Shown here piece after piece: positions 1,265 through 58,365 of a stretch of 63,998 nucleotides of DNA (positions are counted from its first letter, which is position 1; every line of letters begins with the position of its first letter). The position numbers and the translations under genes are program-made. The stretch is from a virus. Its lineage: Duplodnaviria; Caudoviricetes. Location: positions 1-63,998 of the IMG/VR virus record IMGVR_UViG_3300033134_000083, one strand, 5' to 3'. The notes under the pieces are model-generated. The model saw only the letters and a program-made list of their open reading frames with translations. It made no database searches and was not told the origin of the DNA.

Positions 1265-1555
1265 TTATGGTTTCCGTTTCCTGAACGTTTGCCTAGCTTC
1301 CAGTATGAGTGGTACTGTCAACAGCGCACCGGGGATGATAAGCAACGCAAACCACGGACGGTCATTGCCAAGCCACTGCGCAAGACCCTCGCCGATGAGC
1401 AACCCGGCAGGCAGGCTAGCCCACTGGGCCACACGCTGAGCGGACGGCAACTTGTAACGCCAGTAGTGACGCCACTGACTAGCTTCAATCCACACGAGTG
1501 CAGCTAGAGCGTGAACTTCGTGCAAGAATCTGCGTAGCCACCAATGACGTTTCAC
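1265..1555 (-). CDS. small membrane protein
   Basis: Two hydrophobic segments; ATGA overlap with the upstream gene. Confidence 0.5.
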   Translation of the reverse strand: MKRHWWLRRFLHEVHALAALVWIEASQWRHYWRYKLPSAQRVAQWASLPAGLLIGEGLAQWLGNDRPWFALLIIPGALLTVPLILEARQTFRKRKP

Positions 1556-2202: not shown

Positions 2203-2348
2203 TGTAATCATTCCCTTCCTGGCGGTACAGGATAGGTTCTTGCGCTAGGGCCGTAAAGCTTCAGCGCTAGTGCGTTGCGTGCAGCCCGGCCGGTGCCATC
2301 GGTGACTTTCGAAGCGAGTAACTTCTTCCAGACCGTCAACTCATGTGT

Positions 2349-10863: not shown

Positions 10864-13800
10864 CTACTCCCACTACTCAGCAGCAGTCACCTCCGCAGCC
10901 CAGCGCTCTTGATGACCTCATCGCCCTGCTCCTGCTCACCAGCCCTGCTCTAGCAGCCTGGATAGCTACCCGCCGCAGCAGCGTCCGGAGCATGACCAAC
11001 ACCCGTCTAGCTCAGCTAGCAGCCGTTCTACGTGGCTTCCAGCAGTCAGCACTAGCCGGTGAACCAACCAATCCAGATGACCTGGAACACCAACTCAACG
11101 CTGTCCTAGCCGGTCCCGCTGTCCTCCCAGCCGACCAGCTACCCGAGCCAGGTTCCACGGGAAACACCTACCGTGGCCAGCCAGCTACCGGCCCAGCGCA
11201 AAGCTCCGCTGCTAACGTCGGGCAGACGGAAGTATCCGCTGCTATTGGTGCTGCCGCACATAACGTATACCGCAGCGACCCGGACGTGGACTACTCCGAA
11301 TGGCTAACCGCCGAGGACGAAAAAGTCTGCCCTATCTGTGTAGCTAACCAGGAAGCAGGCCCGGTTCCTATTGGCGCACCGTTTCCATCAGGGGTGCCGT
11401 TTCCACCGGCGCATGTGAACTGCCTACCGGGGGATGCCCTTGTATCGGCCCGTAGCCGTATCACGGGTGCGACGTCTCGGATATACGACGGTGAGCTGGT
11501 CTGCATCCGCACTCTGGCTGACAAGCTCCTTTCCGTCACCCCCAATCATCCGGTACTGACGGACCATGGCTGGATTGCGGCTGGTCTCCTGAAGAAAGGA
11601 GAAAACGTAGTTAGCGCTAGCGAGAGTGAGCGGAAACCGGGAATTGACTACGATAACGAGAACATGCCAGCCCGCATTCAGCAAATAGCGGAAGCGTTCT
11701 TGTGCTCGCGCAACGTGACTACCGCTGAAGTGCCATTGACCGCCGAAGATTTCCACGGCGACGGAGCTGGTAGTGAAGTCAGCATTATAGGGACCTATCG
11801 CAGTTTGCGTCCCGTACTCAAGACCGAGAGAGTTCAAGTAGGTGGCAAACAGCCGTTCCAATGCGGACACATGTACATCGCTCGGCGCGGCTTCACGGGT
11901 TTGCGCTCTAGCGATTCGCCGTTCCAGCGAGTCGGTATTTCCACGCCGAGCCACGTTAGCAGCAATAGTAAGAGCGCTACGCTCTTCGGCAGTAGTTTGC
12001 GCCATGCGGACGTACATGCTTTCGCTACGCCCTCTGGGCTTGACGTCGTTTTGCAGCAGGATGCGGCGGATAACGTTACGACTGACGCCAAAAGATTCAG
12101 CAAGCGCTTTTTCGCTCTCACCCTTGGTGTAGCGGTCGAGCAGGTTGCTGAGGTCTGGCGGGTCCCATTTAGCGGGCATGTGTATAACCTTGAGACAGTT
12201 GATGGGTGGTACATCGCCAATGGCATTGTAACTCACAACTGCCGGTGCACGACTACTCCCAGTGACTATCGTGCGGTGCCTGCGTTTGAAGCTCAGCAGG
12301 AAGCAATGCCCATGCGCCGTTTCGGCCTGCCGCATACTTCAGCGAGCCGGGAACGTGAACTGCAGAACGTGCCCAGTGAAACAACCGTGCTTCATGTAAC
12401 AGCAGAGCTAGAAAAAGGCGCCCCTGAGGGGAACATTTCCGGTGTCACCTTCGGTCCGCTTGCTAAATGCGTCTCCTGTGGCTGCGGTCTACCCCATGAT
12501 GACCACGGAGACGCCCGTAACATTACCCAGGAAGACGTTGAAGCCGCAGGAGCCGCAGTGGGTATAGCACCCGGCCAAGCCGCATCCAACATTGCTGACG
12601 CTTGGCGTGCGATGATGGTAGACGAAGCTGGCGCCAGGCAAGCGGACCAGGCATCCAAAGGCTGGCACGACGCGTGGCTGCATGAACTACGCGGCGGCCA
12701 CGGCGAATGGATTGGCGTTGGTGGTGACGTACCACACTTCGCTCAGCATGGCTCCACCCACGTCGAAGTAAAACCCCTCGTTAACGGCGACCACGAAGAC
12801 ATCAAACAGCGAGTTGGTAACCAGCTAAACCACCAAGCACAATGGGTGCCTAACCTTGCAGTCAGCTACCACGCTCACGTAACACCCGACAACGAACCCG
12901 ACTCTGGGCACCACCAATGGGGTTCCATCGTCATCCGCCAGCATGAACTATCAGACGACCAGCTACCCCACACCGTAGCCCACCAAATGGGTCACGCCGT
13001 TCACGACGCATTCCAAGGCGGTGCCGCCACCCAATACAACTCCAAACTGGGCGACATAAATCTGTGGCGCAAACTTTCTGCGGCTCTCGGCGTCAAAGAC
13101 CCGCCATTCACTCCTCGTAGCCACGGACGTGGTTACGTAACTCCTATGGTGTCCACCGACTGGGTGCGCCGCAACCGGGCCGCTATCCGGGACCAAGTCT
13201 CTAACCAAGCCACCGCTAACGTGGACGAGTTCATCGCCGAACTATGGGACCAGTTCACCACATCACCTAACCCTAGCCCCGTCGCTCAAATATTCGGCGA
13301 CTACGTGATGCAAAATTTGCCGTCACGCACCCACAACCCCCTTCTCGGGGAACTAGCCATGGCCGGTGGCAGCGTCGGCGGCCGCCGCAAATCCATGCAA
13401 GACTACTGGATAGCTAAAGACCTCCGCACTGCCTGGGAACACGAACTACGAGACCGTCACGGCAAATGGGCTAAAGCCGTTACCGAAGCACTGAAAACCG
13501 CACCCGACGCTCATGTAGCATCGGCTGATCGCAACGCTGAACATGTCGTGTTCACTATCGGCGACCCCAAGACCGCTGACCACGTTGTCACTATCGTGCC
13601 CGGCATGAACCCGCACTGGGAACATTTGCCCGCCGAAACAAAAGCAGCTTCCCGGATGAAAGCAGCCGTCGAAGCCAGAACCGGTAAAAAAGTCGCTGCC
13701 ATTCTCTGGGCTGGCTACAAACCACCGCAAAACTTTGCTTCGGCTAGCGACAAACTAACCGCGCAACACGCAGCTAAAGACCTTATGCGCTTTCAACGCC

Positions 13801-15371
13801 AGCTACGCAAAGACAACCCCAACGCCCACCGCACCGTTATCGGTCACTCCTACGGCAGCGTCGTCTCCGGTGAAGCAGCCCGCCACCTACCCAACTTCGC
13901 CGACGACCTCGTGCTCATTGGCTCACCCGGCACCTCGGCACACAAAGCAACCGAGTTCAACGTCCCCGACGGTCACGTATGGGTAGGAGCCCACTCCAAA
14001 GACCCCGTAGCTGGCGTATCCCGAGAACTACGCTTCCACTACGGCGGCAGCCCAGCCCGGCCAGCCTTTGGCGCAAAGGTATTCAACTCCGAAGTGCCAG
14101 GGGCTCAGTTCAGCACTCCGCTGCACAGCAGCGTTGGAGTGCTCGGACGAATGTGGCCCCAGACCAGCGAAGCTGACCCCGTAGCCATGTCAGCAGGAGC
14201 GCACTCCAGCTACTGGCGGCCCAACTCCAACGCCTGGAACGCAATGACTGCGATAGCATCAGGCGACCCTATTATCGAAACACCCGGCATTCCCGGCCAG
14301 CCACTCGTCGTAAAAGGCTGGCACGACGCCTGGCTACATGAGTTCCGTGACCCACGTGGCCACTGGGTGCACGAAGGACCACCACCAGCAGTACAGGACA
14401 TGGTCAAACACGGGTGGACGTTCCACGGCACCCCCGGTTCCCACCAGCACGCTAGTTTCCTATCCTCTGCTGCTGACCTAATGCGAAGCCAGCCACAGCT
14501 ACGTCCCCTAGCTGAGACGCTGCGCCGAGCATCAGCGGAGATGAACAAAAAACACCCCGACGTAGCCCACCAAGTACTCCTAGGTGCAGCTAAGCAAACA
14601 CACTTCGCAGCCCTGAAAACCGGTGACGTTAACTTGCGTCACGCAGCATTCGCGTTGCATTACCACGGCGACCTCCTAGACGACTTGCACCTCACCGGTC
14701 GCAGTGACTTGCCGGAAACTCGTGAAGCTGCGGATGCACGCCGCTCCCTGGAAGCCGACCTGAAGTCCGGCCAGCACGACGTTCAATACCCTGGCCATGG
14801 ACAAATGGGCGAAACGTCGTTCGTCCGGTTCAATAACGGTTCCCGGTGGGTGCGTAAAGGTGACGCAGCTATCGACCAAGACCGCGAAATTCTCTCCAGT
14901 CGGGTAGCGGATGCCCTCGGCGCTCGGGCACCGGAAGTTATCCCCGACTCATCATGGAACCCTACCGACAAACACCCCGTTGTCTGGGAGCCCATGCTGC
15001 CGCACCCTACCGCTATCGACTTGGAACGCGGCAAAGACTACGATCCCGACAAAGTGTTCTCCGGCCCTGAAGGTCAGCGAATTGGCGTTCTTGACAAAAT
15101 CATATCCAACCAAGACCGCAACGACGGAAACTGGCTCGTAGACAGTAACGGACTTCCTGTTCCTATCGACCACGGCCAAGCTTACTTTGACAACGACTAC
15201 GCCCCATCCAGCGAGTTTTCCACCAAACTAGACCCGACATCCATTTCGCCTGCGCAATGGGATGAGTGGGCAGGAAAACTCGGCGCTCTCAGCCCAGAGT
15301 TCTCCGCGCTCAACCGAGGAGACTGGTTTCAATCAATGATGCAGTCATTCCAAAGTCTGAGGCCATCATGA
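10860..15371 (+). CDS. MuF (phage head morphogenesis) polyprotein containing an intein and several effector domains
   Basis: WLTAEDEKVCPIC...PPAHVN|CRC MuF motif split by an intein; zincin-like, alpha/beta hydrolase (GHSYGS) and kinase-like (DRNDGN...IDHG) domains; frame is open from CTG 10860 (ORF track start is ATG 10992). Confidence 0.85.
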   Translation: MTTPTTQQQSPPQPSALDDLIALLLLTSPALAAWIATRRSSVRSMTNTRLAQLAAVLRGFQQSALAGEPTNPDDLEHQLNAVLAGPAVLPADQLPEPGSTGNTYRGQPATGPAQSSAANVGQTEVSAAIGAAAHNVYRSDPDVDYSEWLTAEDEKVCPICVANQEAGPVPIGAPFPSGVPFPPAHVNCLPGDALVSARSRITGATSRIYDGELVCIRTLADKLLSVTPNHPVLTDHGWIAAGLLKKGENVVSASESERKPGIDYDNENMPARIQQIAEAFLCSRNVTTAEVPLTAEDFHGDGAGSEVSIIGTYRSLRPVLKTERVQVGGKQPFQCGHMYIARRGFTGLRSSDSPFQRVGISTPSHVSSNSKSATLFGSSLRHADVHAFATPSGLDVVLQQDAADNVTTDAKRFSKRFFALTLGVAVEQVAEVWRVPFSGHVYNLETVDGWYIANGIVTHNCRCTTTPSDYRAVPAFEAQQEAMPMRRFGLPHTSASRERELQNVPSETTVLHVTAELEKGAPEGNISGVTFGPLAKCVSCGCGLPHDDHGDARNITQEDVEAAGAAVGIAPGQAASNIADAWRAMMVDEAGARQADQASKGWHDAWLHELRGGHGEWIGVGGDVPHFAQHGSTHVEVKPLVNGDHEDIKQRVGNQLNHQAQWVPNLAVSYHAHVTPDNEPDSGHHQWGSIVIRQHELSDDQLPHTVAHQMGHAVHDAFQGGAATQYNSKLGDINLWRKLSAALGVKDPPFTPRSHGRGYVTPMVSTDWVRRNRAAIRDQVSNQATANVDEFIAELWDQFTTSPNPSPVAQIFGDYVMQNLPSRTHNPLLGELAMAGGSVGGRRKSMQDYWIAKDLRTAWEHELRDRHGKWAKAVTEALKTAPDAHVASADRNAEHVVFTIGDPKTADHVVTIVPGMNPHWEHLPAETKAASRMKAAVEARTGKKVAAILWAGYKPPQNFASASDKLTAQHAAKDLMRFQRQLRKDNPNAHRTVIGHSYGSVVSGEAARHLPNFADDLVLIGSPGTSAHKATEFNVPDGHVWVGAHSKDPVAGVSRELRFHYGGSPARPAFGAKVFNSEVPGAQFSTPLHSSVGVLGRMWPQTSEADPVAMSAGAHSSYWRPNSNAWNAMTAIASGDPIIETPGIPGQPLVVKGWHDAWLHEFRDPRGHWVHEGPPPAVQDMVKHGWTFHGTPGSHQHASFLSSAADLMRSQPQLRPLAETLRRASAEMNKKHPDVAHQVLLGAAKQTHFAALKTGDVNLRHAAFALHYHGDLLDDLHLTGRSDLPETREAADARRSLEADLKSGQHDVQYPGHGQMGETSFVRFNNGSRWVRKGDAAIDQDREILSSRVADALGARAPEVIPDSSWNPTDKHPVVWEPMLPHPTAIDLERGKDYDPDKVFSGPEGQRIGVLDKIISNQDRNDGNWLVDSNGLPVPIDHGQAYFDNDYAPSSEFSTKLDPTSISPAQWDEWAGKLGALSPEFSALNRGDWFQSMMQSFQSLRPS
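11421..12239 (+). mobile_element. intein 1 (273 aa) in MuF
   Basis: CLPGD block A, VTPNHP block B, SGHVYNLET block F, THN|C block G; removal restores PAHVNCRC. Confidence 0.92.
11424..12179 (-). CDS. antisense HTH + Vsr/DUF559-like PD-(D/E)xK endonuclease inside intein 1 (251 aa)
   Basis: HTH (SEKALAESFGVSRNVIRRIL); SALERLF...Q.AIGPYNADF...VAVEIFGGQWH...LLNAGWHVL. Confidence 0.85.
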   Translation of the reverse strand: MPAKWDPPDLSNLLDRYTKGESEKALAESFGVSRNVIRRILLQNDVKPRGRSESMYVRMAQTTAEERSALTIAANVARRGNTDSLERRIARAQTREAAPSDVHVSALERLFATYLNSLGLEYGTQTAIGPYNADFTTSSVAVEIFGGQWHFSGSHVARAQERFRYLLNAGWHVLVIVVNSRFPLTLASANYVFSFLQETSRNPAMVRQYRMIGGDGKELVSQSADADQLTVVYPRRRTRDTATGRYKGIPR

Positions 15372-17131
15372 TTACGGTTCACACTCAAGCAGGTAAACGC
15401 GGCACCATCCACATCGAAAACAACCGCCTCAAAGGGTCCACCCCTGCACTGCAACGCGTCGCTGACCAAGTACAAAGCCGCATCGGCAGTGCTCAGGACT
15501 CGTACCACTATCTGCTGCGCAGCTCCAATGGTTATGTCCAATACGCGGAAGCAGGCCACCAATCACCCGATTCAGCTAAGGTACAGCTACCCGACTCACA
15601 GGGACGCCCATCGGAGCTATGGATTGCTAAAGAAACTGTAGCCATGCTGGAAGACGTGGAAAAAAGAAAGTCTCCGCGAGGTAACGCTCAAACTTTGCGT
15701 GACTACTGGACCGGCCATGGTCACGGGGGACCCACCCACCACGCATTCGAGCGAGCCATTGCGTGGGGTACGCCCGGTGACTTCGACCGCTGTGTAGCCA
15801 TGGTCACTGAACACGCCAAAATGAGCCCGGAGCACGCCAAGGGCTACTGCGTTACCGAAGACGCTCGCGTGCTTTCGGCTGGAAGCTCACTCCGATTGCT
15901 GGGCAGCTTTGAACGGTATTACATCGGGGATGTCATCGCTATTACTACTTCCACCGGTAACCAGCTCACCGTTACCCCGAATCACCCGATAGCAACACGG
16001 AGCGGCTGGGTTCCGGCTGCGGAACTCCAGCCAGGAGACCACGTCCTGTGCAGCCTCAGCGCTGAACGCATGATACGCCAAGACGAAGATGACATCGTAC
16101 CCCGCATTAAGCAGGTAGCGCAGTCGCTGTCCTTGGCGTTCACCACGGTGACGCGGGCCGTAGATTTCCACGGCGATAGTACCGATGGCGAGGTCCACGT
16201 TGTACGGGCCAACAGCCTTTTGGTGGACGATGCCCTCAACGCCATGCTCGCTGAGCATGCGGGCGAACTGCTCCTCGTCGGAAGCGACCATGGGATTCGC
16301 CTGGCGCGTGCGGGCAGCCTTGAACCGGTTCTTAGCTCCAGTTCCGCCGGGAGTCCCGTAAACGCGGGGCAGGCTAGGGTCAGCTGGTATCCGATGGTCA
16401 GCGGGGATGTGGTTGCGTCGCAGAACGTTGTAGACGCTGCTGATCGAGCAGCCCAAAGCCGAAGCGACTACTTCGGCTTTATCTCCGGAAACGAAGCAGC
16501 TGATGATAGTCGCTTCATCCAGGTCGGCCTGGAACCCGTTATTCGCGTGCCTAATGGCAACGCAGTTTGCTCTCAACACGTCGCTGATGGTGTTCCGGCT
16601 AGCGCCAAGCCGTTGAGCAACGTCGCTAACCTGAAGTCCGGTTTTGTAGAGAGCAACTACCTCGGCGTCCGTGTAAGTCCGGTGACGAACGAAGCCAGCA
16701 GCACGGCGCGGACCACGCTGGACTTCAACGCCTCTCTCGCTGAGAAGCTTCTTTACGGTTCGATGGCTGACTCCGAGACTCGCCGCGATTTTCGTCAGTG
16801 GCTCTCCGTCGATGTAGCGTTGCGCGATGTTGTCTCCGTCGAGCGAAGGTCGTTCAGCGGTCATGTCTACGATCTTAGTACAGATACCGGAGTCTTTACA
16901 GCAGAGACTTTGGTATCTGGCCCGTGCAATCTTCGCCACCATGACGCGCTAGGCATCTGGCCCGCTACCCACGCTAAGGACATTAGGGAAGCAGAAGGCA
17001 AGGAGAAGGTTTCTGCAGCCAGTTTGGCGAAAGTCGGACCGCACGGCTGGGCACATGACTGGAAAGACGTAGACCCTGCGTTACTGGGTTTGGTCAGAAA
17101 AAGAGCAAGCCGACCAAGCGGCCCGGTATGA
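15368..17131 (+). CDS. head-associated protein containing intein 2
   Basis: ATGA overlap with the MuF stop; host reads LRDYWT...AWGTPGDFDRCV...AKGY|CNLRHHDALGIWP once the intein is removed. Confidence 0.75.
   Translation: MITVHTQAGKRGTIHIENNRLKGSTPALQRVADQVQSRIGSAQDSYHYLLRSSNGYVQYAEAGHQSPDSAKVQLPDSQGRPSELWIAKETVAMLEDVEKRKSPRGNAQTLRDYWTGHGHGGPTHHAFERAIAWGTPGDFDRCVAMVTEHAKMSPEHAKGYCVTEDARVLSAGSSLRLLGSFERYYIGDVIAITTSTGNQLTVTPNHPIATRSGWVPAAELQPGDHVLCSLSAERMIRQDEDDIVPRIKQVAQSLSLAFTTVTRAVDFHGDSTDGEVHVVRANSLLVDDALNAMLAEHAGELLLVGSDHGIRLARAGSLEPVLSSSSAGSPVNAGQARVSWYPMVSGDVVASQNVVDAADRAAQSRSDYFGFISGNEAADDSRFIQVGLEPVIRVPNGNAVCSQHVADGVPASAKPLSNVANLKSGFVESNYLGVRVSPVTNEASSTARTTLDFNASLAEKLLYGSMADSETRRDFRQWLSVDVALRDVVSVERRSFSGHVYDLSTDTGVFTAETLVSGPCNLRHHDALGIWPATHAKDIREAEGKEKVSAASLAKVGPHGWAHDWKDVDPALLGLVRKRASRPSGPV
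15848..16924 (+). mobile_element. intein 2 (359 aa), paralogue of intein 1, with a non-canonical C-terminus (VSGP|C)
   Basis: CVTED block A, VTPNHP block B, FSGHVYDLST block F; terminal Asn absent. Confidence 0.85.
15887..16864 (-). CDS. antisense 3xHTH + Vsr/DUF559-like endonuclease inside intein 2 (325 aa)
   Basis: Three HTH repeats (IAASLGVSHRTV, VAQRLGASRNTI, VASALGCSISSV); QKAVGPYNVDLAIGTIAVEIYG...LRYLLNAGYDVI. Confidence 0.85.
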   Translation of the reverse strand: MTAERPSLDGDNIAQRYIDGEPLTKIAASLGVSHRTVKKLLSERGVEVQRGPRRAAGFVRHRTYTDAEVVALYKTGLQVSDVAQRLGASRNTISDVLRANCVAIRHANNGFQADLDEATIISCFVSGDKAEVVASALGCSISSVYNVLRRNHIPADHRIPADPSLPRVYGTPGGTGAKNRFKAARTRQANPMVASDEEQFARMLSEHGVEGIVHQKAVGPYNVDLAIGTIAVEIYGPRHRGERQGQRLRYLLNAGYDVIFVLAYHAFSAEAAQDVVSWLEFRSRNPAAPCCYRVIRGNGELVTGGSSNSDDIPDVIPFKAAQQSE

Positions 17132-17292: not shown

Positions 17293-20200
17293 CTGTCCGA
17301 GTTCCGTGACCCCGTGGCGCAGAAACTAGCTCAAGCTCTTAAGAGCTATAACCCGGACCAGCCTCGTGGCGCACACGGCGAGTTCGGTTCGGACGGTCAG
17401 TCGGCTCAATCAGCTGCTCAATCAGCGCAAAAAAAGTCGCTGCTGTCTCAAGCAAGCGACTTGGACCAAGAAGCAGCGGACATCCAGTCCACCATTAAGT
17501 CGCTGAAAAAAGAGCAAGCATCCTACCTAGCGCAAGCTAAAGCAGCTGAAGCGTCGTCTAGCTCCTCTAGTAGCTCAACTTCCTCTACGTCAACGTCACC
17601 AACGGTAACTGGAACAGCAGCCGGTTCCACTTCCGCTACATCTGCTGCCGCTTCCACGGCTACTACAGCAGCCCAGTACGAAGCTGACGCTGCTGCAGTA
17701 GGTAAGCAGATAACCACTCTGCAAATCAAAGTCAACTCGTTGCATGCTCAAGCTAACCAGCTACGCGCTCAAGCAGCAGGCATCAAGTCGGACGGGACAG
17801 ACAGCCGCCTACTATCTGGCATTCGCCAAGACCTTGGGCAGTCTGTCCCTAACCAGAATTATATACCCAAATCAACACGGAGGTCCGTGGCGGCCACTCT
17901 AACCGACCAGCAGGAAGCTAGCTTCAGCTTCCCGATATTGAAAACTGAGACGACCGCTGATGGCGACCTGCTGGTTTACGGTAAGGCCACCGATGGAACC
18001 GTGGACACGGACGACCAGATTGTTGACCCTGGCTGGTCCAGTAAGGCACTAACCGACTGGCTGTCCACTGGCGCTAACCTACGTGTTCAGCACAACCCGC
18101 ACCGTGACCCCGCCGGTATTGGACTCCAAATCGACGCTGACCGTGACGGCGACGGTAGCCACTACCTCAAGGCTCTGGTAGTAGAACCAACTGCTAAGAA
18201 GCTCGTCAGCAAGGGTGCGCTGCGCGCTTTCTCCGTTGGCATTATGCGGCCCCGCATTGTTACGGATATGAAAGCTCGCGGCGGGCGGATTGTTGACGGT
18301 GAACTGGGCGAAGTCAGCCTCGTGGATCGCCCTGCTAACCGCAACTGCACCTTCACTCTCGTCAAAGCCGACAAGAAGGGCCGTGCCGAGTGGTTGGGTG
18401 CCTTGAACAGCGACCCCGACTTCCTCGCTAAGTCACTTACCCCATCGCCTGCTGATGTAGCCCGCATGATTGGTAAGCGAGCAGTTGAACCGGGCCCCAG
18501 CCGCCCCAACGTCCAGCAGAGCGAGATTCCCACCTACTTCGCTGACCCGGTAGCTAACCGGCTCCAGGAAGCACTAAGACTGGAGAAGCGCGACCTGCCC
18601 GGCGGCGGCAACGTGGACTCTGGCGGGCAAGACCGCAGCGACATGCCACGTAAAGACTTCGCTGGTCCGAACGGCACGTTCCCCATCGAAAGCCAAGGCG
18701 ACGTAAGCGACGCCGCTAGCCTGGCGCACCATGCTGACAACCCGTCCGCTGTCCGTAGCCGCATTCGCTCCATTGCCCGCAGGAAGTGGCCGGACATGAA
18801 ACTGCCACCGTCTCTCGACGGCGACGGTGACGATAAAAGCGCCGAAGCTGACTTGGAAAAAGCAGGCATGAAAGCCTGCCCGAACTGCGGCAAAAATTAC
18901 CACGCCGACTCCAAGATGAGCAAATGCGAAAACTGTGGCCACAAACTTCCCGTGGTTAAAGCCGACAGTGAATGCTCCACTTGCCACGGCAGCGGCAAAA
19001 TCCGCGAAGGTCACATGAAGTGCCCGGACTGCGGCGGCAGTGGCGTTATGAAGGGCGTTTCGAACTTCGGAGACAAGAAAGCCCCCGCGTTTGGCTCCGA
19101 CGAAGACGAAGAAGACGACAACGAGAAGGTGGCTAAGGGTCACGACCAGGACATGGGTGACCGCATGCAGGAAGACGACGATAACTCCGGCGAAGGCGAC
19201 GGAGACAATGACGATGATGGCCAAGACACTTCTGACGACGATGGCGTAGGCGAAGAAGACAACATTAAGCAGGCCGTTCCCACTACTGGGAAACTGTTCT
19301 GCCCGTCCTGCGGCAGCAAAGTCAAAAAGTCCGGCAACTTCTGCCCTGGTTGTGGCGCGAAGCTAGCCATGCCCGACAAAACCAAACACGTCATTCCGCA
19401 TTCTCACCCCTCGCCTGGTGACAATGTACGGGGCAAGAAGACTAAGCCCGTTGCTCCACACCGGGAACCAGACGGTCCCCAGACCGAAGATTTCGAAGCA
19501 GATTCCGGCATGCAAGACGGGGATGCAAAGGGGGGTAAGCCACCAGAGCCGTCGCCCACGTGGACTAAGGCACGCGGTTCCACCGACCCGTCCACTGGTG
19601 TAGCGCACACTCCTGGCACTACCGAGGGTCCCAACCCTGGTAGCGAAGAAATGCGGCCTGAGGAAGAGTACGAAGTCGGCCACGGTGAGGAAGACAACCG
19701 TCCGTCTTCACCCGATGGGATGGCTCAGTACGCGAACATGAAGATGCGTGTTACCGAAGCGCCGTACACCATCATGCGGATGCACGACGCTCTATGTGCC
19801 GCCTACGACGGTTTCGACGTGCTAGCTGAATACCCCAGCCTGAAGACTTTCGCCGATGCAGTGGACGCTGAGAGCTGGCGGGAGCTAGCTAAGAACGTTG
19901 TGGCTGAAGGCAACCTGCACCTTGGGCAGAGTGCTCTAGCCGTTGCTAACGCAGCCGAAGCACTCAAAGCAATGGACCCTGCTGCGGTGGAAGACGGCCG
20001 GGCACTACTCCGCAAAGACTTCACCAGCATGTACCCCAACGTGCACTTGAGTCCGGGCCAGATTACTGCTCAGCAGTTCAACCGGCCCTACATCAGCGAA
20101 GGTCACGCACCGCTGTCGGCTGCACCCATGGGAAGCCAGCCATCGGCTCCTACCCCACCGGCCCCTCCGTCTGCTTCCCAGTTCACCCGAGGCCCACTCA

Positions 20201-20931
20201 CCGAAGGTCACGAGTCTCCTAGTCCCGGCAATGGCGGCAACCGCCCAGCAAGCTTCGCTCAGCCTTCCATGGGCAGCTTGAGCGCCCCTAAGGGCGACGC
20301 GTCTGCTGCCATTGCCGTCATCCACGACCACATTGTCAACGAATGGCCGGACCTGTGCACCATGAGCACCACCTACGTCCAGCCAGCAGCTAAGAACGGC
20401 ATCGACGCTACCAGCGGTGCTGGCAGCCAGATTGCTAACCAGATTCGCCGCCACCAGCAGCGTCAGCAAGCTCAAGCTGGTCCTCAGAACATCACCAAGG
20501 GTGAAGGTCTCGTGCCAGTCACTAAGAAGCAGATTGGCAAGGTCGCCGGTAGCGGCCTCACTGAGAAAGCACTCAAGAACGTTCTCGCAGCCGAGCTGAG
20601 CAAAGCTACAGCTACCCTGACCGATACCATCAACAACTACCGTGAGCAGAACGAAATGCTGGTTAAGCAAGTCGGTGACTTGCAGCACCAGGTTGACATT
20701 CTCGGCTCACAGCCCGACCCGAACCAAGCTCCAATTCGCAGCGTAACGGCCTATCCGCCCAATCTCGAAAGCGGTGCTGTCGCCCAGGACCGGCGGTCCT
20801 TGGTGGACGAGATGGGCGAGAAGATTCGCGCTGAAAAAATGCAGTTCCTTAAGTCGCTTGCTAACAGTGGCGACCCAGTAGTGCGTGAAGGCGCTCAAGC
20901 CCAGATTCAGAAATTGCTGATGGCGCCGTGA
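17293..20931 (+). CDS. prohead maturation protease / scaffold polyprotein
   Basis: VYGKAT...D.DDQIVD...NLRVQH...AFSVGI...EVSLVDRPAN protease core; DUF6582-like module, zinc ribbons, acidic tract, C-terminal coiled coil; second in-frame GTG start with RBS at 17887. Confidence 0.85.
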   Translation: MSEFRDPVAQKLAQALKSYNPDQPRGAHGEFGSDGQSAQSAAQSAQKKSLLSQASDLDQEAADIQSTIKSLKKEQASYLAQAKAAEASSSSSSSSTSSTSTSPTVTGTAAGSTSATSAAASTATTAAQYEADAAAVGKQITTLQIKVNSLHAQANQLRAQAAGIKSDGTDSRLLSGIRQDLGQSVPNQNYIPKSTRRSVAATLTDQQEASFSFPILKTETTADGDLLVYGKATDGTVDTDDQIVDPGWSSKALTDWLSTGANLRVQHNPHRDPAGIGLQIDADRDGDGSHYLKALVVEPTAKKLVSKGALRAFSVGIMRPRIVTDMKARGGRIVDGELGEVSLVDRPANRNCTFTLVKADKKGRAEWLGALNSDPDFLAKSLTPSPADVARMIGKRAVEPGPSRPNVQQSEIPTYFADPVANRLQEALRLEKRDLPGGGNVDSGGQDRSDMPRKDFAGPNGTFPIESQGDVSDAASLAHHADNPSAVRSRIRSIARRKWPDMKLPPSLDGDGDDKSAEADLEKAGMKACPNCGKNYHADSKMSKCENCGHKLPVVKADSECSTCHGSGKIREGHMKCPDCGGSGVMKGVSNFGDKKAPAFGSDEDEEDDNEKVAKGHDQDMGDRMQEDDDNSGEGDGDNDDDGQDTSDDDGVGEEDNIKQAVPTTGKLFCPSCGSKVKKSGNFCPGCGAKLAMPDKTKHVIPHSHPSPGDNVRGKKTKPVAPHREPDGPQTEDFEADSGMQDGDAKGGKPPEPSPTWTKARGSTDPSTGVAHTPGTTEGPNPGSEEMRPEEEYEVGHGEEDNRPSSPDGMAQYANMKMRVTEAPYTIMRMHDALCAAYDGFDVLAEYPSLKTFADAVDAESWRELAKNVVAEGNLHLGQSALAVANAAEALKAMDPAAVEDGRALLRKDFTSMYPNVHLSPGQITAQQFNRPYISEGHAPLSAAPMGSQPSAPTPPAPPSASQFTRGPLTEGHESPSPGNGGNRPASFAQPSMGSLSAPKGDASAAIAVIHDHIVNEWPDLCTMSTTYVQPAAKNGIDATSGAGSQIANQIRRHQQRQQAQAGPQNITKGEGLVPVTKKQIGKVAGSGLTEKALKNVLAAELSKATATLTDTINNYREQNEMLVKQVGDLQHQVDILGSQPDPNQAPIRSVTAYPPNLESGAVAQDRRSLVDEMGEKIRAEKMQFLKSLANSGDPVVREGAQAQIQKLLMAP

Positions 20932-24307: not shown

Positions 24308-25492
24308 ATTCGTATTCTCTGGTCGTCTAATGCGCCCTTCGCAGCGACGGGGTATGGAACCCAAACTGCTACCTGGCTACCGAGGATTAAATCGCTTGGC
24401 CATGAAGTAATAGCTGTTGCTCCGCCGTCATTTGCTGGGTCGCCGTTGAACTGGAACGGTATAACGGTTCTTCCTGGGTGGCGGGACGGAATCGGTAACG
24501 ACATTCTGCTAGACCATTACCGTCGCAGCGAAGCCGACGTGCTCATCACGTTGTGCGACGCGTACATGCTGGCACCCGAGATGCTCAGCGAAATGAACGT
24601 AGCCCACTGGCTGCCAGTTGATTGCTACCCTATGAACTTCCGCGACCAGGCCAGCATGAACCAGACCGGTGCGTTGCCGATAGCTATGAGTCAGTTCGGC
24701 CGGGACCAGCTAAAATCAGCCGGGTTTAGTCCGCGTTACATTCCGCACGCTATCGACATTACAACATTCTCACCACCCGCTAACCATAAGAAGCAGCGGG
24801 AAAGCATCGGACTGAGCGACAACACGTTTGTCGTTGGCTTGAACGCTTACAACAAAGACGTAATGCGAAAAGCGTTTGGGGAGCAGATGCTGGCGTTTGC
24901 GGCGTTCCGCAAACGCCACCCTGACTCAATGCTGCTGGTTCACTCCGCTGTGGCTGAACCTACTGCCGTGGACTTGCAAGCCCTAGCTCATGCCTGCGGG
25001 ATAGAAAAAGCTATCCTATTCCCCGACCAGTACAGCTATGCAGTTGGCACGATGACTGCTGAGAACATGGCTTCCTGGTATGGAGCGCTGGACGTTCTCA
25101 CTAACTGCTCCTACGGCGAGGGTTTCGGTCTGCCCATCCTCGAAGCCCAAGCTACCGGCACCCCGGTTGTCGTCACTGACGCTTCGTCCATGACGGAGCT
25201 GTGCGGTAGTGGATGGCTAGTTCCCGGTGATAAATTCTGGGTTCCGGCTCACCGGGGCTGGTGGATGCGACCGGACGTGTCATCCATGACTGCTGCGTAT
25301 GAGTCCGCATGGCAAGCACGCGAAAACGGTACCATGCCCGCGTTGCGGGAAAAGGCCCGCCAGTTCGCCCTCAAATACGACGCCGACGTAGTACTCAAGG
25401 AATGCTTCGCTCCGGTACTGGACGAAATCCAGGGAAACCTTCCAGTCAAAGAAGGTGTCAGCAGTGGCATTCTCCCTGAAACGGTACCATGA
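24308..25492 (+). CDS. GT-B (family 4-like) glycosyltransferase
   Basis: RILWSSNAPFAATGYGTQT N-terminus and EGFGLPILEAQATGTPV signature; requires an ATT/ATA start. Confidence 0.85.
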   Translation: MRILWSSNAPFAATGYGTQTATWLPRIKSLGHEVIAVAPPSFAGSPLNWNGITVLPGWRDGIGNDILLDHYRRSEADVLITLCDAYMLAPEMLSEMNVAHWLPVDCYPMNFRDQASMNQTGALPIAMSQFGRDQLKSAGFSPRYIPHAIDITTFSPPANHKKQRESIGLSDNTFVVGLNAYNKDVMRKAFGEQMLAFAAFRKRHPDSMLLVHSAVAEPTAVDLQALAHACGIEKAILFPDQYSYAVGTMTAENMASWYGALDVLTNCSYGEGFGLPILEAQATGTPVVVTDASSMTELCGSGWLVPGDKFWVPAHRGWWMRPDVSSMTAAYESAWQARENGTMPALREKARQFALKYDADVVLKECFAPVLDEIQGNLPVKEGVSSGILPETVP

Positions 25493-26132
25493 CTTTTACA
25501 ATACCCTCGGCTTTAACCAGTCAAGTGCGTTTATCCAATGGACTATCAAGGAACACGAAGCAGCTATCCTAAGCGAAAACTGCGTCGGTGCTAAATCAGT
25601 AGTCTCAGTGGGAACGTTCGGCGGTCTTTCGGTAGCAATAATCCTGGATGCTATGGCAGACGATGGGATACATTACGGCATCGACCCGTTTTTCCCCAAG
25701 TATTGCGCGCAGGACAATTACCGAGATGTATACGACGCTACTGTCGCTCACTTTCGCCGCCCCGGTCAGCAGACCGTAACCTTTCCTGGGTTTGCTTCCA
25801 TCCCCGGCGAGGAGCTATCCCAAAACGCCAGTGACGGGGAGCCTCCCATTGAGTGGCATCAGCTAAAGCGCGTACCACCCGGCGTGGACGTGTGTTTCAT
25901 CGACGGTGACCATCACGACCCAGTGCCCCTGAATGACTTCCAGGAAGTGTGGCCACTAATTAAGCCCGGAGGCCGCGTCCTCCACCACGACATTTCCAAC
26001 TCGACGTGGGGACCACACGCTGTTTCGCTGCTGAACTACATAAGGGAACTACCGGACGCAGACCTCTGGACTGATACGTCAGGTGAAGACGGAATCGCTG
26101 TAGTAACCAAAAAGGACGTGACCGCTACTTGA
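25455..26132 (+). CDS. class I SAM-dependent methyltransferase (Methyltransf_24-like)
   Basis: VGTFGGLS, GIDPF, FIDGDH and IKPGG..LHHD motifs. Confidence 0.75.
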   Translation: MSAVAFSLKRYHDFYNTLGFNQSSAFIQWTIKEHEAAILSENCVGAKSVVSVGTFGGLSVAIILDAMADDGIHYGIDPFFPKYCAQDNYRDVYDATVAHFRRPGQQTVTFPGFASIPGEELSQNASDGEPPIEWHQLKRVPPGVDVCFIDGDHHDPVPLNDFQEVWPLIKPGGRVLHHDISNSTWGPHAVSLLNYIRELPDADLWTDTSGEDGIAVVTKKDVTAT

Positions 26133-26821
26133 GCGTTGCCATTGTCAGCACCATCTACGACAACTATGACGCACCGTACATTCCACCCGAGCAAGACATC
26201 GAGTGCGAATGGGTCATGGTCACCGACCGGCCTCGTAGCTGCGCACCGTGGCGAGTGGTAACCGAACCAAGGCCGCATCTGCCTCCCCGGCTGGCGGGTA
26301 AAGTGCCCAAGACGCATTCCCGGCATTACACCGATGCTGACGTGGTTATCTGGACTGACGCTAACGTGGAAGTCACAGCTCCAGATTTCGCGTCATGGTG
26401 CGTAGCTCAACTCGGTGACAACCCGCTGAAAGCGTACGTTGACCCAGGTCGCGCTACTGTCCACGAAGAAGCTGCAGCTTCAGCAGTGTCGCCACGTTTC
26501 CACGGCCAGCCGTGCGTCGACCAAGCCGACTTTTATGTGAAGAACGGTTTTCCACCCGACTTTGGCACGTGGTGGACTGGGCTAGTGATTTACGGGCCCA
26601 ACTGCCCGTATTTCGGCGACGAATGGCTGAGTGAAATCACCCGCTGGTCGCTGCAAGACCAGATAGCTATCGGCTACATGTTTTGGCAGTACGGCATAGA
26701 CCCCAAACTAGTGTCTATCAAACCGGACTGGACCCGTCCCGACAACGGTTACGGAGGCTGGCACGGCCGAGACGGCGTGCACGACAAGTTCCGCATGCAT
26801 AACCACCGGCATGACCTATGA
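26129..26821 (+). CDS. DUF616-like GT-A glycosyltransferase
   Basis: STIYDNYD, IWTDAN and QDQI motifs. Confidence 0.65.
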   Translation: MSVAIVSTIYDNYDAPYIPPEQDIECEWVMVTDRPRSCAPWRVVTEPRPHLPPRLAGKVPKTHSRHYTDADVVIWTDANVEVTAPDFASWCVAQLGDNPLKAYVDPGRATVHEEAAASAVSPRFHGQPCVDQADFYVKNGFPPDFGTWWTGLVIYGPNCPYFGDEWLSEITRWSLQDQIAIGYMFWQYGIDPKLVSIKPDWTRPDNGYGGWHGRDGVHDKFRMHNHRHDL

Positions 26822-27705
26822 AAGCACTCGTCACTGGCGACAAGGGTTTCATCGGCAGCCACGTTGCCAGTGAACTAAAATCCCGTGGCTACGAAGTGCA
26901 CGGCTACGACCTAGTTGACGACCGGGATGTGCGTAACCTACGTGGCGGCAGCCGCTACGACCTGATTATTCACTGCGCTGCCGTAGTCGGCGGACGACGG
27001 GTCATGGACTGGACCCCGCTGGAGCACGCAGTCAACCTGGCCATTGACGCGGCGTTGTTCCAGTACGCCCACCGTATTCGCGCTGGCCGCGTGGTGTACT
27101 TCTCTAGTTCCTGCGCATACCCCGCCATCTTGGGGGCTATCAACGGCCGGAAACTAGCCGAAGGCGACATCAACCTGGCTCAGCCACGGTGGCCGGACCA
27201 GCTTTACGGCTGGACCAAACTCACCGGGGAGCTACTCGCCCAAACAGCACGCGAAGCTGGCGTGCCTGTAAGCGTGGTACGGCCGTTCTCGGTGTACGGC
27301 CCACGTATGCGTGAAGGCTTCGCTGTCCGAGGCTTCCTGGAGCAGGTACAGCGCCGTAAAGACCCCGTCTCAGTTTGGGGTAACGCCGACCAGGTTAGGG
27401 ACTACATCCACGTAGCCGATGTAGCTAAGGCTGTAGCCACAGTAGCCGAGCAGCACATCGACGGCCCGGTCAATTTGGGCACTGGCGTTGGCACATCCCT
27501 AGCCGAACTAGTAGCCATGATGAGTGAAGCAGCAGGCTACGCTCCGACTGTGGAAGTGAACCGTGACATGCCCGCTGGTTACCCGTACCTCGTTGCGGAC
27601 GCCAAACTGCTGCACACGTTCTGCCCGCCGAGAATGGCGCTGGAAACCTACCTAGCTGAGGTGCTGGATGCTCGTCATGGTGCCGTCCAGGGAACGTCCC
27701 CGTAA
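26818..27705 (+). CDS. NAD-dependent epimerase/dehydratase
   Basis: VTGDKGFIG, SSSCAY, YGWTK and RDYIHVAD motifs. Confidence 0.9.
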   Translation: MKALVTGDKGFIGSHVASELKSRGYEVHGYDLVDDRDVRNLRGGSRYDLIIHCAAVVGGRRVMDWTPLEHAVNLAIDAALFQYAHRIRAGRVVYFSSSCAYPAILGAINGRKLAEGDINLAQPRWPDQLYGWTKLTGELLAQTAREAGVPVSVVRPFSVYGPRMREGFAVRGFLEQVQRRKDPVSVWGNADQVRDYIHVADVAKAVATVAEQHIDGPVNLGTGVGTSLAELVAMMSEAAGYAPTVEVNRDMPAGYPYLVADAKLLHTFCPPRMALETYLAEVLDARHGAVQGTSP

Positions 27706-28330
27706 CGTAGCCCGGTTCGCTCAGGCAGCCCAGCAAACCGCTACCACGGCTGACGTTGTGTTCATCTTTGATGAAGACGACCCGCTCCTAGCCGAATCCA
27801 TCAAAGCAGCAGGACCGTGGCGTTACGTCACCCAGCCACGCATGATTACCGTGCCTAAGGTTAACCACTTTGCTATGGCTAACTTGGACTACCCAGTGCT
27901 CATGTTCGCTGGCGACGACTGCATACCCCAAACCAAAAGCTGGGATGAACAACTAGCCGACGCTGCCGCAACTGGTTACGCCTACCCCAACGGACTAGGC
28001 CGCACCGACATACCAGAACACGTAGCTATCCGCAGTGACATAGTCGAAGCCTTGGGCTGGTTCATGCTGCCTGTTTTGTCCCACTACTACACGGACAACG
28101 CCTGGGCTGACCTAGGCAACGGCGCCAAATGCATTACGTACCTGTCTGACGTGGTTTTGGAGCACCGTAACCCGCTGTACCGCAAAGGCCCCAAAGACCA
28201 CGTCCTCAGGATGGCTGAACTACGCGGCGACGCCGACCGAGCTGCATACCAGCAATGGCACGACGACGGCTTTGCTGATGATTTGAAAACAGTGCAGCAG
28301 GTTACTGCCGGATCAAAACTTCAAGGATAG
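27668..28330 (+). CDS. GT-A (family 2-like) glycosyltransferase
   Basis: VPSRERP, FAGDD and HYYTDN motifs. Confidence 0.75.
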   Translation: MLVMVPSRERPRNVARFAQAAQQTATTADVVFIFDEDDPLLAESIKAAGPWRYVTQPRMITVPKVNHFAMANLDYPVLMFAGDDCIPQTKSWDEQLADAAATGYAYPNGLGRTDIPEHVAIRSDIVEALGWFMLPVLSHYYTDNAWADLGNGAKCITYLSDVVLEHRNPLYRKGPKDHVLRMAELRGDADRAAYQQWHDDGFADDLKTVQQVTAGSKLQG

Positions 28331-29411: not shown

Positions 29412-29609
29412 TTGTCGTGGCGGCGGCGGGGCGCACCCAGTATGCACGGAAGCGAGTGCCAGCGTTGTGGCACGAGTGGGCGCGGGCGTACTGGACGGCG
29501 CTCTGCCATCGCCACCTGCCGTAGCTGCGGAAAGCAAATCTGCGAGAAGCATGCCACGTGGGATGGCGAAAATTATTTGTGCACATTCTGCAAAAGAAAC
29601 GGCCTTTAA
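29412..29609 (+). CDS. small Cys-rich zinc-finger protein
   Basis: CQRC, CRSC, CEKH, CTFC. Confidence 0.6.
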   Translation: MSWRRRGAPSMHGSECQRCGTSGRGRTGRRSAIATCRSCGKQICEKHATWDGENYLCTFCKRNGL

Positions 29610-29610
29610 C

Positions 29611-29903
29611 CGTATCTTCTCTGGCTACCGTCGGGACTGTGGCCCGCTTCTTGTCTGGCTTTCGTTTTCACCGTGAGCCTGCCTGGCGTTCGATAGGCTC
29701 TGGAAACTGCAAGCTTGATGGCTTTCGCAACATCTCTGGCTTTCGCACCCTTTCTGGGATGCTGCAACGACGATGGCTACCGTTCCACCCCTGAGCCGCC
29801 GGTTCGCTGGCTATCGCATCACCTTTGGGCGGTTACTTACCTTAGCTATCGCGCGAGCGCTGGCTAAGGACCGCGCTGTATCTGGCTATGGTTGCAATCA
29901 TGG
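29611..29903 (-). repeat. TIGR-like dual-repeat array A (about 17 CCA-N9-CG modules, partly degenerate)
   Basis: Alternating CG(at/aa/gt)agCCA and short CG/CA..CCA repeats separated by 9-nt unique spacers; TATAGT at 29917-29922. Confidence 0.75.
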
Positions 29904-29940
29904 GTTACATTTTTTAACTATACCCCTAGGACGGAGGTCC

Positions 29941-30999: not shown

Positions 31000-31548
31000 T
31001 CAGGACTCCTGGGACCCTCGGCGGTACTCCCATAGCCGTCGAACGTTTTCGCTGTTAGTTACCGTTTCCATGTGCGCTGGGTTACAGCAAAGAATGTTTC
31101 GGCACAGATGGTCAATAGTTAGACCCGCTGGAATCGGTCCTACTATTAGTTCGTAAGCAAACCGATGAGCCCCAACTACTTCTTCGCTGGTAATTCCGAA
31201 GCGTCCGTACCCGTCGCTAGTCGTCCCTTCCAGCCACGGCCAGCACTCTTCCGCGTCGCAGCGCTGAACCTTTCCCCAGAAGCGCTCCTCCACCGGAAGC
31301 CCTTGAGGGCGCACCATAAGCAATGGATCACCATTGCGCTTCCAACGGTGATAATGAAGCGAACACCAGCCGCGCGCTAGTCGTACGCCTTCACATCCTT
31401 CTACAATGCAGCTTGTGTCTACTGGATGCCATCGCGATGGCTTAAGGATTGTCGCGTTTCCGTGCTTACGCCATCTTTGGTAGTGAAGCGTACACATATC
31501 CCGGCAGAAGGCAGGCCGCTCGCAGTCAACGATTGAGCAGTTTGTCAC
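31000..31548 (-). CDS. HNH homing endonuclease
   Basis: Two CxxxxC..C.LHY repeats; GYGRF, AHRFAY, IDHLCRNILCCNPAH...EN; TACGAT 6 nt before GTG. Confidence 0.9.
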   Translation of the reverse strand: MTNCSIVDCERPAFCRDMCTLHYQRWRKHGNATILKPSRWHPVDTSCIVEGCEGVRLARGWCSLHYHRWKRNGDPLLMVRPQGLPVEERFWGKVQRCDAEECWPWLEGTTSDGYGRFGITSEEVVGAHRFAYELIVGPIPAGLTIDHLCRNILCCNPAHMETVTNSENVRRLWEYRRGSQES

Positions 31549-32086: not shown

Positions 32087-32097
32087 GTCGGCCAGCT

Positions 32098-32354
32098 CGC
32101 CGGATCTTTGGCTCACGTCTGTGGGGTGGAACCCGCAAGGTCTATGGCTATCGCATTGCTGTTGGGCCGCGGTGTCCCTGGCCTTCGTCCTCCCGCTGGA
32201 ACCTTAAAATCGCGGCCCTCATGGCTAACGTTGGCTGGCTGGCTGGGCAGAACCGCTACATCTGTGGCTATCGCGCCCGGCTTGGGCCGTGTGCCCCCTG
32301 GCTTTCGTCTTCCCCATGGGACCGCAGTATGTTTGGCTTTTGCGGTGATTATGG
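32098..32354 (-). repeat. TIGR-like dual-repeat array B (about 13 CCA-N9-CG modules)
   Basis: e.g. CCA aacatactg CG gtc CCA tggggaaga CG aaag CCA gggggcaca CG gc CCA agccgggcg CG atag CCA; TATACT at 32366-32371. Confidence 0.8.
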
Positions 32355-32389
32355 ACTTTAAAGCAAGTATACGCTAATACCGGAGGTAA

Positions 32390-33682
32390 ATGACTGCGAT
32401 AGTCATCGCAACGCCGCAGCCTGTTTTCCCAGTCTCTGAGCGTTTTGTCGGCATTGCCCGGGAAACTACCTACGGTACTGCGGTCAACCCTGCCTACACT
32501 ATACCTCTCACTTCGTTCACCCCGTCCGACAAACCCGTATGGGTTATGGACGAAGCATGGCGTGGTGCCATGGCGGGCGAGTACGACATGCTGCAGGGTC
32601 CCATCTGGGCTGAGACAGCGTTCGCTGGTCCGGTATACGGCGACACGGTTGGGCACCTGCTTTATAACATCTTGGGAGATTATACCCAGTCAGCTACCAG
32701 CACTACGCCCACTACGACGCTGTCGTCAGCAGTCGCGTATGGGGTGGGCACCATTCCCGTAGCTACCGGTACGTCATTCACCAACGGTATGTATGTGGAA
32801 GTGTTCCAGAGTGGGAGCACCGGCCCGGCTGAAATCTGCCAGGTATCCAGCTCCACGTCAACTACTATCGTGTTCTCGGCTGCTACACCCATTCGGTTTG
32901 CCCACTCGTCTGGTGCGACCGTCACAAACACGAACGTGTCGGCTGGCACCTACACCAACACGTTTACGTTGCTGAACGGAACTGTAGGCCAGGACGCTAT
33001 GGGCGCCGGTCAGCCACCAAGCCACACCTTCACCGACCGCACCCAAGTACCAGGGTCCGCAGGCAACCTCGCCGCTCAGTACGCGTTTGGGTGTTTGTCG
33101 CAGCTAACCCTAACGGGTAGCGCCCAGGGAATTTTTATGCACTCAGGGAACCTGACCAGCTTCTCCTACGCACAACCTAGCGCTGCGCCCACCGCTAACG
33201 TGTCCTCGGTGCGTGCTACGCCAAACTGGCGCTCCACCATCGGCGTCAACGGAACCGTGTCCGGCTCCCCCGTGGACGACATCACCGAATGGGAGTTCGC
33301 GCTGAACCGAGTCGTGGAACCCATCCCCACCACGGACGGTACGCAGTCGCCATACACCATAGCCCGAGGCAAGTTCACTGCTACCGCGAAGCTTACGTTC
33401 CAGCCTAGCGTTGACTTGTCTGCGCTGACTTACATGTTGAACAACACTCAGCCGCAGCTACAAATCATCTACTCAAACGGCCTATCGGGTACCAGTAACA
33501 TTACGTACACGATTAATGTTCAGCTAGGTGCGTTCGACACGGCTAACATCAACGAGTCTTCGGCACTGTTCGGGTACGACGTAACCGCTAAGCTGATTGC
33601 TAACACCACGAACGGCATTGGCTGGTCCGGTAGTTACTCACCAATCAGCATTGCTATAGCTAATTCGATTCCAGTTTACTGA
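32390..33682 (+). CDS. major tail tube protein with Ser/Thr-rich insertion
   Basis: VGIARETTYGTAV N-terminus; PPSHTFTD; position in the operon. Confidence 0.8.
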   Translation: MTAIVIATPQPVFPVSERFVGIARETTYGTAVNPAYTIPLTSFTPSDKPVWVMDEAWRGAMAGEYDMLQGPIWAETAFAGPVYGDTVGHLLYNILGDYTQSATSTTPTTTLSSAVAYGVGTIPVATGTSFTNGMYVEVFQSGSTGPAEICQVSSSTSTTIVFSAATPIRFAHSSGATVTNTNVSAGTYTNTFTLLNGTVGQDAMGAGQPPSHTFTDRTQVPGSAGNLAAQYAFGCLSQLTLTGSAQGIFMHSGNLTSFSYAQPSAAPTANVSSVRATPNWRSTIGVNGTVSGSPVDDITEWEFALNRVVEPIPTTDGTQSPYTIARGKFTATAKLTFQPSVDLSALTYMLNNTQPQLQIIYSNGLSGTSNITYTINVQLGAFDTANINESSALFGYDVTAKLIANTTNGIGWSGSYSPISIAIANSIPVY

Positions 33683-33890: not shown

Positions 33891-34066
33891 TGTGGTTCAC
33901 CTCCCTTCGGCTGGCTAATGCCTGCCTGGGAGATGGCGCAGAACCATCGCGTATCCTCCTTCCTGTGAGCTTCGCTTCAGCTTTGGCTTCCGCTGCTTCC
34001 ATGGCAACGTATGCCCTCGCTCCTACTATGGAGCTAATACTTACTATAACCCGTGAAAGGGAGGCA

Positions 34067-58235: not shown

Positions 58236-58365
58236 TTCGTCCCCTTCCCAACTGCTCGCTTCCCTGGCGCTACGTTAAGCTTACCCGCTTCTTCGAGTAG
58301 CCCAAGGTGCACGCGATAGCCAGTAATGAGGCGGCTGCCCGGAAAAAGGCGGGTAAACTTAGTAC

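Follow-up and report, generated by a model that had tools for sequence, protein, structure and literature searches.

The locus considered here raises two questions. In a viral genome (Duplodnaviria; Caudoviricetes), a run of short CCA-containing modules lies antisense between a 166-aa gene and a 430-aa tail gene (32390–33682, plus strand, phrog_290), and its layout recalls the arrays of the TIGR-Tas systems, which were first described in 2025 (Faure et al., 2025; PMC12045711). Is the run a guide-RNA array, and where is its partner protein encoded? The DNA analysed, called the window throughout, is the whole of IMG/VR virus record IMGVR_UViG_3300033134_000083, which is linear, 63 998 nucleotides long and 77% complete according to CheckV. 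A first-pass annotation had read the run, here called array B, as an orphan TIGR-like dual-spacer array in which box UG is replaced by CG.

Anatomy and setting of array B

Array B occupies 32098–32354 on the minus strand and consists of seven dual-spacer units, or 14 modules (13 CCA-N9-CG and one CCA-N9-CA). On that strand the units lie at 32323–32354, 32288–32319, 32254–32285, 32211–32242, 32168–32199, 32134–32165 and 32098–32129. A 4-nt NNAG loop (in order aaag, aaag, atag, ttag, aagg, atag and tgag) alternates with a variable short linker, the edge (gtc, gc, gttctgcccag, attttaaggtt, gc and ggtt), across all seven. A unit of about 34 nt is made up of a short edge (CG-g(n)c-CCA), spacer A, a CG-NNAG-CCA loop and spacer B. 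CCA (box C) ends both repeats in 14 of 14 modules. The UG of box D is absent, its place being taken by CG in 13 modules and by CA in one, and edge and loop share the CG. Compared with each other, the two halves of array B have the same boxes and different spacers. All of the modules that had been listed previously were found on the minus strand where they had been placed, and the statement that every unit contains two purine-ended 9-mers is true of all 14 spacers, each of which is 9 nt long. One unit had been passed over (32211–32242, minus strand), in which the spacers gccagccaa and tgagggccg lie on either side of the loop ttag.

The density of the pattern is far from that of the surrounding DNA. 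The background frequency of CCA-N9-CG on the minus strand is 0.63 per 300 nt; the array B site, with 13, is the maximum of the window, and the next-highest count is nine, at 29589–29889 on the same strand. The complete 32-nt unit pattern CCA-N9-CG-NNAG-CCA-N9-CG has 13 matches in the window, whereas 100 shuffles gave 0.02 on average and never more than one, and the reversed pattern, used as a control, has none. The box positions are near-invariant and the spacers vary, with no spacer pair within five mismatches of another between genomes. A tandem-repeat finder detected just a TGGC run in this region. Contigs from three wetland DNA runs have a TGGC insertion in the (GCCA)n stretch of unit 4 (32232–32246); no RNA run was found to contain the DNA of the window.

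Repeats of this kind could also be the trace of a small protein gene on the plus strand (ORF 32108–32377) or a series of protein-binding sites in the DNA; one plus-strand frame is indeed open for 89 codons and the repeat spacing is regular. However, the ORF matches nothing in Pfam or PHROG, the other two plus-strand frames contain stops, the module period of 16–18 nt is not divisible by 3 and the gene pair that flanks array B is only ~82 nt apart in the relative G002. The coding reading, which the first-pass annotation had named as one that would count against a guide array, was rejected on these grounds. Since the repeats are also tied to a Tas-fold protein elsewhere (see below), we regard both of these readings as scarcely credible. 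Array B was likewise ruled out as a structured RNA: the region 32087–32389 folds no better than its shuffles (z of −0.19 for the minus strand and +0.16 for the plus strand) and, at Rfam gathering thresholds, the window contains three tRNAs and nothing else.

The plus strand of the window carries a structural module with the portal gene at 6846, large head proteins, a glycosyltransferase cluster, the tail gene 32390–33682 and the tape-measure gene at 36245, which is downstream of array B and the tail gene. The cluster, at 24446–28330 (plus strand), comprises glycosyltransferase, methyltransferase and nucleotide-sugar epimerase genes within the structural module. Neither a large terminase nor replication enzymes could be identified in the window, the right end of which reaches into a replication-initiator gene; a substantial part of the genome is therefore missing. 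An exact 34-mer from the right end had no match among viral contigs, no near-identical phage records were found and the portal protein is at most 32% identical to those of named phages.

A Tas-fold protein family beside the same code

Viral contigs were scanned for three consecutive modules, which identified contig G001. It contains two long and very regular arrays, in which CG-gc-CCA alternates with CG-NNAG-CCA around 9-nt spacers; between the portal and terminase genes of this contig, a 288-aa ORF has one of the arrays on either side, both on the strand of the ORF. The 288-aa protein has no Pfam match (Pfam Nop included) and no sequence match in the PDB. Its family has 42 relatives in a 90%-clustered collection and 651 representative clusters at E ≤ 0.001. 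An AlphaFold model of the family (mean pLDDT of 87) was compared with the PDB using Foldseek; TasH or TasR chains took all of the first ten places and IS110-family recombinases came next. Using VIA-align, the model gave Z scores of 16.0 against TasR (9mty_B, chain residues 109–301), 14.7–15.7 against TasH chains (residues 63–284), about 12 against IS110 recombinases and 5.3 against Nop5p, with unrelated chains reaching up to 8.2. The alignments to TasR and TasH span model residues 4–287, and the N-terminal nuclease domains of these proteins lie outside the aligned part, which indicates a solo Nop-type Tas resembling TasA. According to the predicted structure, the 288-aa family is thus a nuclease-less Tas with a Nop-type fold. 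The matches to IS110 recombinases and Nop5p also bring IS110 bridge RNAs and archaeal box C/D sRNAs into the comparison; unlike these, the units of the window have no K-turns, methylation machinery or recombinase domain, and they are far shorter and arrayed.

Arrays or exact units lie beside the gene or in the same record at eight of the 14 viral loci of the family that were examined (either was counted), and the loci without units mostly belong to its most distant members. Some of these arrays, such as that of L036, have palindromic edges like those of the published stem-loop type. An accessory gene of 168–175 aa adjoins Tas in three contigs: G016 (locus L060, 9451–9957, minus strand), G001 (locus L020, 4498–5025, minus strand) and L066 (3364–4122, plus strand). 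It has no Pfam match; its product may be a processing or loading factor.

The TIGR-like reading of the first-pass annotation therefore holds, in that a CG...CCA code with 9-nt spacers flanks genes for Tas (Nop)-fold proteins in other viral contigs, two relatives of the window included. The replacement of UG by CG in box D was borne out in the same way, as the CG code also surrounds Tas genes in these contigs. We identify array B as a guide-RNA array of the TIGR type, belonging to a TasA-like clade, with CG as box D and a very short edge. The identification is well supported by the link of the code to a Tas-fold protein, both in other phages and among relatives.

As described in the main text of Faure et al. 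(2025; PMC12045711), each TIGR repeat opens with box D (UG) and closes with box C (CCA), and the spacers are 9 nt long; the loop repeat resembles an A-rich tetraloop, a terminator stands at the end of the array, the boxes can diverge provided that edge and loop stay alike, and arrays lie upstream or downstream of the Nop protein gene. With the dual-repeat arrays of that account, array B has in common two alternating repeats, two 9-nt spacers per unit, CCA ends, an A-rich loop and variable spacers. It differs from them in having CG rather than UG as box D and a unit of ~34 nt rather than 36 nt, the latter because the edge repeat is only 7–8 nt long. A further difference from the published dual-repeat arrays (PMC12045711, main text) is one of layout: no tas gene was detected beside the arrays or elsewhere in the contig, and the arrays are split over several sites, antisense to structural genes.

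Dispersed units and the partner gene

Array A, the second array of the window (29611–29903, minus strand), has 11 CCA-N9-C(G/A) modules with the loops aaag, atag and gtag, and is more degenerate than array B, several of its modules having decayed (CTA, CCG, TCA). A 59-nt contig from the wetland DNA runs skips 92 nt inside it (29709–29800); both this skip and the TGGC insertion of array B may reflect polymorphism in array length or may have arisen in assembly. Beside the two arrays, the window contains at least six solitary units spread over both strands. Five of these are exact. The first (8732–8763, minus strand) is antisense in the 3' part of the portal gene; its flanks pair in part and a TATACT lies 24 nt upstream. 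The second (10539–10570, plus strand) has a stem of ~19 bp and is in frame and sense in the ParB-like gene 10021–10860; it is missing from the G016 ortholog. The third (33973–34004, minus strand) lies downstream of the tail gene, at a position equivalent to that of an eight-module array in the relative G003. The remaining two are intergenic, with the pairing flanks ttacccgc and gcgggtaa (58302–58333, plus strand), and at the 5' end of an ERF-like gene, with a short flank pairing of ctgc and gcag (60356–60387, plus strand). One-mismatch units are found at 17806–17837 (minus strand; loop aatg), with a 12-bp stem and a TATAAT 26 nt upstream, and possibly at 15223–15254 (plus strand; loop acat), where 9-bp pairing flanks are set apart. 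Most solitary units are closed by complementary flanks of this type.

About 500 nt into the head gene 17314–20931, the unit at 17806–17837 is inserted in frame and antisense into a Ser/Thr/Ala-rich linker. Like 10520–10590 (plus strand), the stretch 17794–17850 (minus strand) is an in-frame linker insertion that is missing from the orthologs in G016 and the metagenome contig L066, and these units therefore look like small insertions that are spreading within the genome. The ParB-like gene was itself considered as a candidate Tas because it contains a unit; judged by sequence comparison, it was discarded, since an ortholog without the unit exists and it has no Tas profile match. Near-complete genomes that bear Tas have single units 37–46 kb from the tas gene (G017, 50680; G021, 106654; G020, 98614), so distant solitary units are not peculiar to the window.

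The solitary units resemble the stem-loop TIGR units that accompany TasA (PlTasA, Faure et al., 2025; BlTasA and CsTasR, bioRxiv 10.64898/2026.09.09.750476), as given in the main texts, in being closed by palindromic stems. Further likenesses are that the units can sit in frame in coding linkers and that the partner family, like TasA, is nuclease-less. The published intragenic units, to the extent of these texts, lie inside tas, whereas those of the window lie in ParB-like, head, portal and ERF-like genes, many kilobases from any tas. Array B, in contrast to the stem-loop arrays of those texts, has no stems.

The first-pass annotation had called array B an orphan with no visible Nop-domain Tas. 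The second part of this description stands: sequence-profile searches detected no tas gene next to array B or anywhere else in the 64-kb window. Pfam Nop had no match in the six frames of the window, nor did the profile of the 288-aa family. With a wider profile of 186 Tas sequences the best E value in the window was 0.04, and the controls G016 and G001 were recovered at ~1e-94 to 1e-99; the best hhalign probability for any window ORF of at least 120 aa was 20%. The first part was not established, as the contig is just 77% complete and the arrays are accordingly not proven to be orphan. The HNH gene 31000–31548 was considered as a TasH and dismissed, since it encodes a small HNH_3 homing-type enzyme without a Nop part and is on the other strand in G003.

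Two relatives with long syntenic tracts were compared with the window. G003, the tail protein of which is 84% identical, is syntenic with the window at 24–44 kb and has arrays of the same kind opposite the structural-gene strand, at other intergenic sites than in the window. G016 is syntenic at ~8–25 kb, its capsid-like protein being 84% identical and its ParB-like and head proteins ~55% identical, and it encodes a 318-aa Tas together with a 168-aa accessory protein homologous to that beside the G001 Tas. This cassette is antisense and lies between homologs of the window genes 10992–15371 and 17314–20931; the units of G016 are on the strand of the cassette, 0.06 to 4.4 kb away from it and antisense to head genes. 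L066 has a Tas and accessory cassette in the same slot. The question of whether related genomes encode a Nop-domain partner thus has a positive answer, as a Tas-fold partner occurs with CG...CCA units in both G016 and L066. In the window the slot consists of the end of gene 15266–17131 and a 183-nt spacer, without Tas, and the nearest element is the unit at 17806, in the head gene that borders the slot. G016 and G003 were also considered as pieces of one genome; this was not borne out, no DNA overlap being found where one was expected. A head-module polyprotein, represented by 15266–17131 (plus strand) in the window and by 3347–7243 in L060, has an intein-like (Hint) segment; the match of the window gene to the G016 protein falls into two separate parts of the latter, on either side of the insert.

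The empty slot suggests a reading in which the lineage has lost the Tas and accessory cassette from between the two head genes, leaving arrays and units as non-functional leftovers that have not yet decayed. That the cassette is present at this place in G016 and L066, that a solitary unit lies close to the slot and that array A is partly degenerate, with possible length variants in both arrays (the 92-nt skip and the TGGC insertion), would all fit such a loss; yet all but one of the 14 array B modules are exact, the solitary units have intact long stems, a rare TATANT box has been kept upstream of each minus-strand array and, the genome being incomplete, the loss itself is not established. We consider it rather unlikely that the arrays are relics.

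A broader screen covered 30 relatives, ten identified via the portal (33–61% identity, up to 135 kb, one complete) and 20 via the capsid-like protein (48–77% identity, four at least 93% complete), with two records in both sets. The portal set contained no Tas and one stray unit match in total; the capsid-like set contained no real Tas and two stray unit matches. A single weak Tas match of 32 residues was obtained in G035 (E value of 4e-4). As the Tas-less relatives are nearly free of units, units and Tas appear to co-occur in a small subclade, to which the window, and possibly G003, form an exception in having units without a Tas in view. The first-pass annotation had also proposed a search for Tas partners in the rest of the genome and in the host. 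The window was negative, as described above, and species-representative cellular genomes contained only one locus of the Tas family, in an Acidimicrobiaceae MAG and at 30% identity, so a host-encoded partner looks unlikely.

If the arrays were truly orphan, they might work without a Tas of their own, either by borrowing the Tas of co-infecting relatives and redirecting it or as decoys, in the manner of phage-borne CRISPR mini-arrays and repeat-mimic RNAs. Such a role could be reconciled with the failure to find Tas in 64 kb, with the unit code shared by Tas-bearing relatives and with the promoter-like boxes that the arrays appear to own. The missing 23% of the genome is nevertheless a simpler explanation, and elsewhere units and Tas are either both present or both absent; orphan function in this sense is highly improbable. 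Orphan CRISPR arrays and phage mini-arrays are similarly guide arrays without an effector gene in their genome, but they represent another RNA family with another effector and the likeness is functional only. We also entertain, as distinctly unlikely, the conjecture that the phage is truly Tas-less and that its promoter-equipped arrays and stem-closed units exploit or neutralise the TasA of related phages in the same hosts, with the single units behaving like small mobile insertions that enter linkers of unrelated genes in frame. Mobile single units, if real, would point to a route by which TIGR units spread.

Putative expression signals and predicted mode of action

The TATACT that had been noted ahead of array B is present on the minus strand at 32371–32366, 17 nt upstream of the first CCA, and is a −10-like hexamer. 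A similar hexamer, TATAGT (29917–29922, minus strand), lies 19 nt upstream of array A. The motif TATANT occurs only 18 times in the window on both strands together, and five of the 18 lie 17–44 nt upstream of minus-strand arrays or units, where ~0.04 would be expected. The elements preceded by it are array B, array A and the units at 8763, 17837 and 34004, that is, five of the five on the minus strand. Upstream of the arrays of G003 and G016 no −10-like boxes were found (0 of 8), and a general sigma-70 scan of the array region gave nothing above chance. A terminator-like hairpin followed by TTCTTTT (29599–29613, minus strand) immediately follows the final unit of array A; terminator-like sites in the region are no more numerous than in shuffles, and at array A just the position is suggestive. 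If this hairpin acts as a terminator, array A would share a further feature with the dual-repeat arrays in the main text of Faure et al. (2025; PMC12045711). No clear terminator was found after array B.

From these signals, array B would be transcribed from the minus strand, starting at TATACT and divergently from the tail gene. The precursor would then be cut within the edges to yield tigRNAs of ~34 nt, each of which may load onto a dimer of a TasA-like protein, so that its two spacers could pair with opposite strands of an 18-bp site. As the partner family lacks a nuclease domain, DNA binding or repression would be a likelier outcome than cleavage. The partner is most likely encoded in the part of the genome that is not sequenced; otherwise, loss of the cassette may be recent and the protein could come from a related co-infecting phage. 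Taken as a whole, this account (a TIGR guide array that is transcribed, processed and loaded onto a TasA-like protein encoded outside the 64 kb) is the best explanation of the locus, and we think it probably correct.

The spacers of each pair were joined into composite target sites, in either order and with a gap of 0–2. Allowing up to three mismatches, the window and its relatives contained 15 matches, compared with 11.5 in shuffles. The own units of two near-complete Tas-bearing genomes gave two matches at up to two mismatches, compared with 0.4 in shuffles, which was judged not to exceed the shuffled level. The search of composite spacer sites against phage DNA that the first-pass annotation had put forward therefore returned no target beyond shuffles in the window and relatives, and self-regulation is not indicated.

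The layout of the window, with several arrays and single units on both strands and many kilobases from any tas, is unusual. The TIGRFinder preprint, as regards its main text, surveys arrays only around tas loci. Orphan or Tas-distant TIGR units are undescribed in the main texts of the TIGR reports searched, the supplements of which may list loci of this Tas clade. Should tas be found in the missing part of the genome, the locus would belong to an ordinary, though unusually dispersed, phage TIGR-TasA system. A completed genome without tas would make it the first TIGR equivalent of the orphan CRISPR arrays and would then raise the questions whether phages share guides or use them as decoys against one another, and how the units multiply.

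Two further gene families vary in position among these genomes. A 219-aa protein (phrog_25883) is encoded at quite different places in the window (1552–2211, minus strand) and in G003 (13058–13747, minus strand), the G003 copy being closely followed, on its own strand, by a solitary unit. The window also has two genes for HNH homing-type endonucleases, 31000–31548 and 55258–55989 (both minus strand), the second with AP2 domains; in G003, L001, L004 and L066 the HNH genes occupy differing intergenic sites, often at the array positions of the window.
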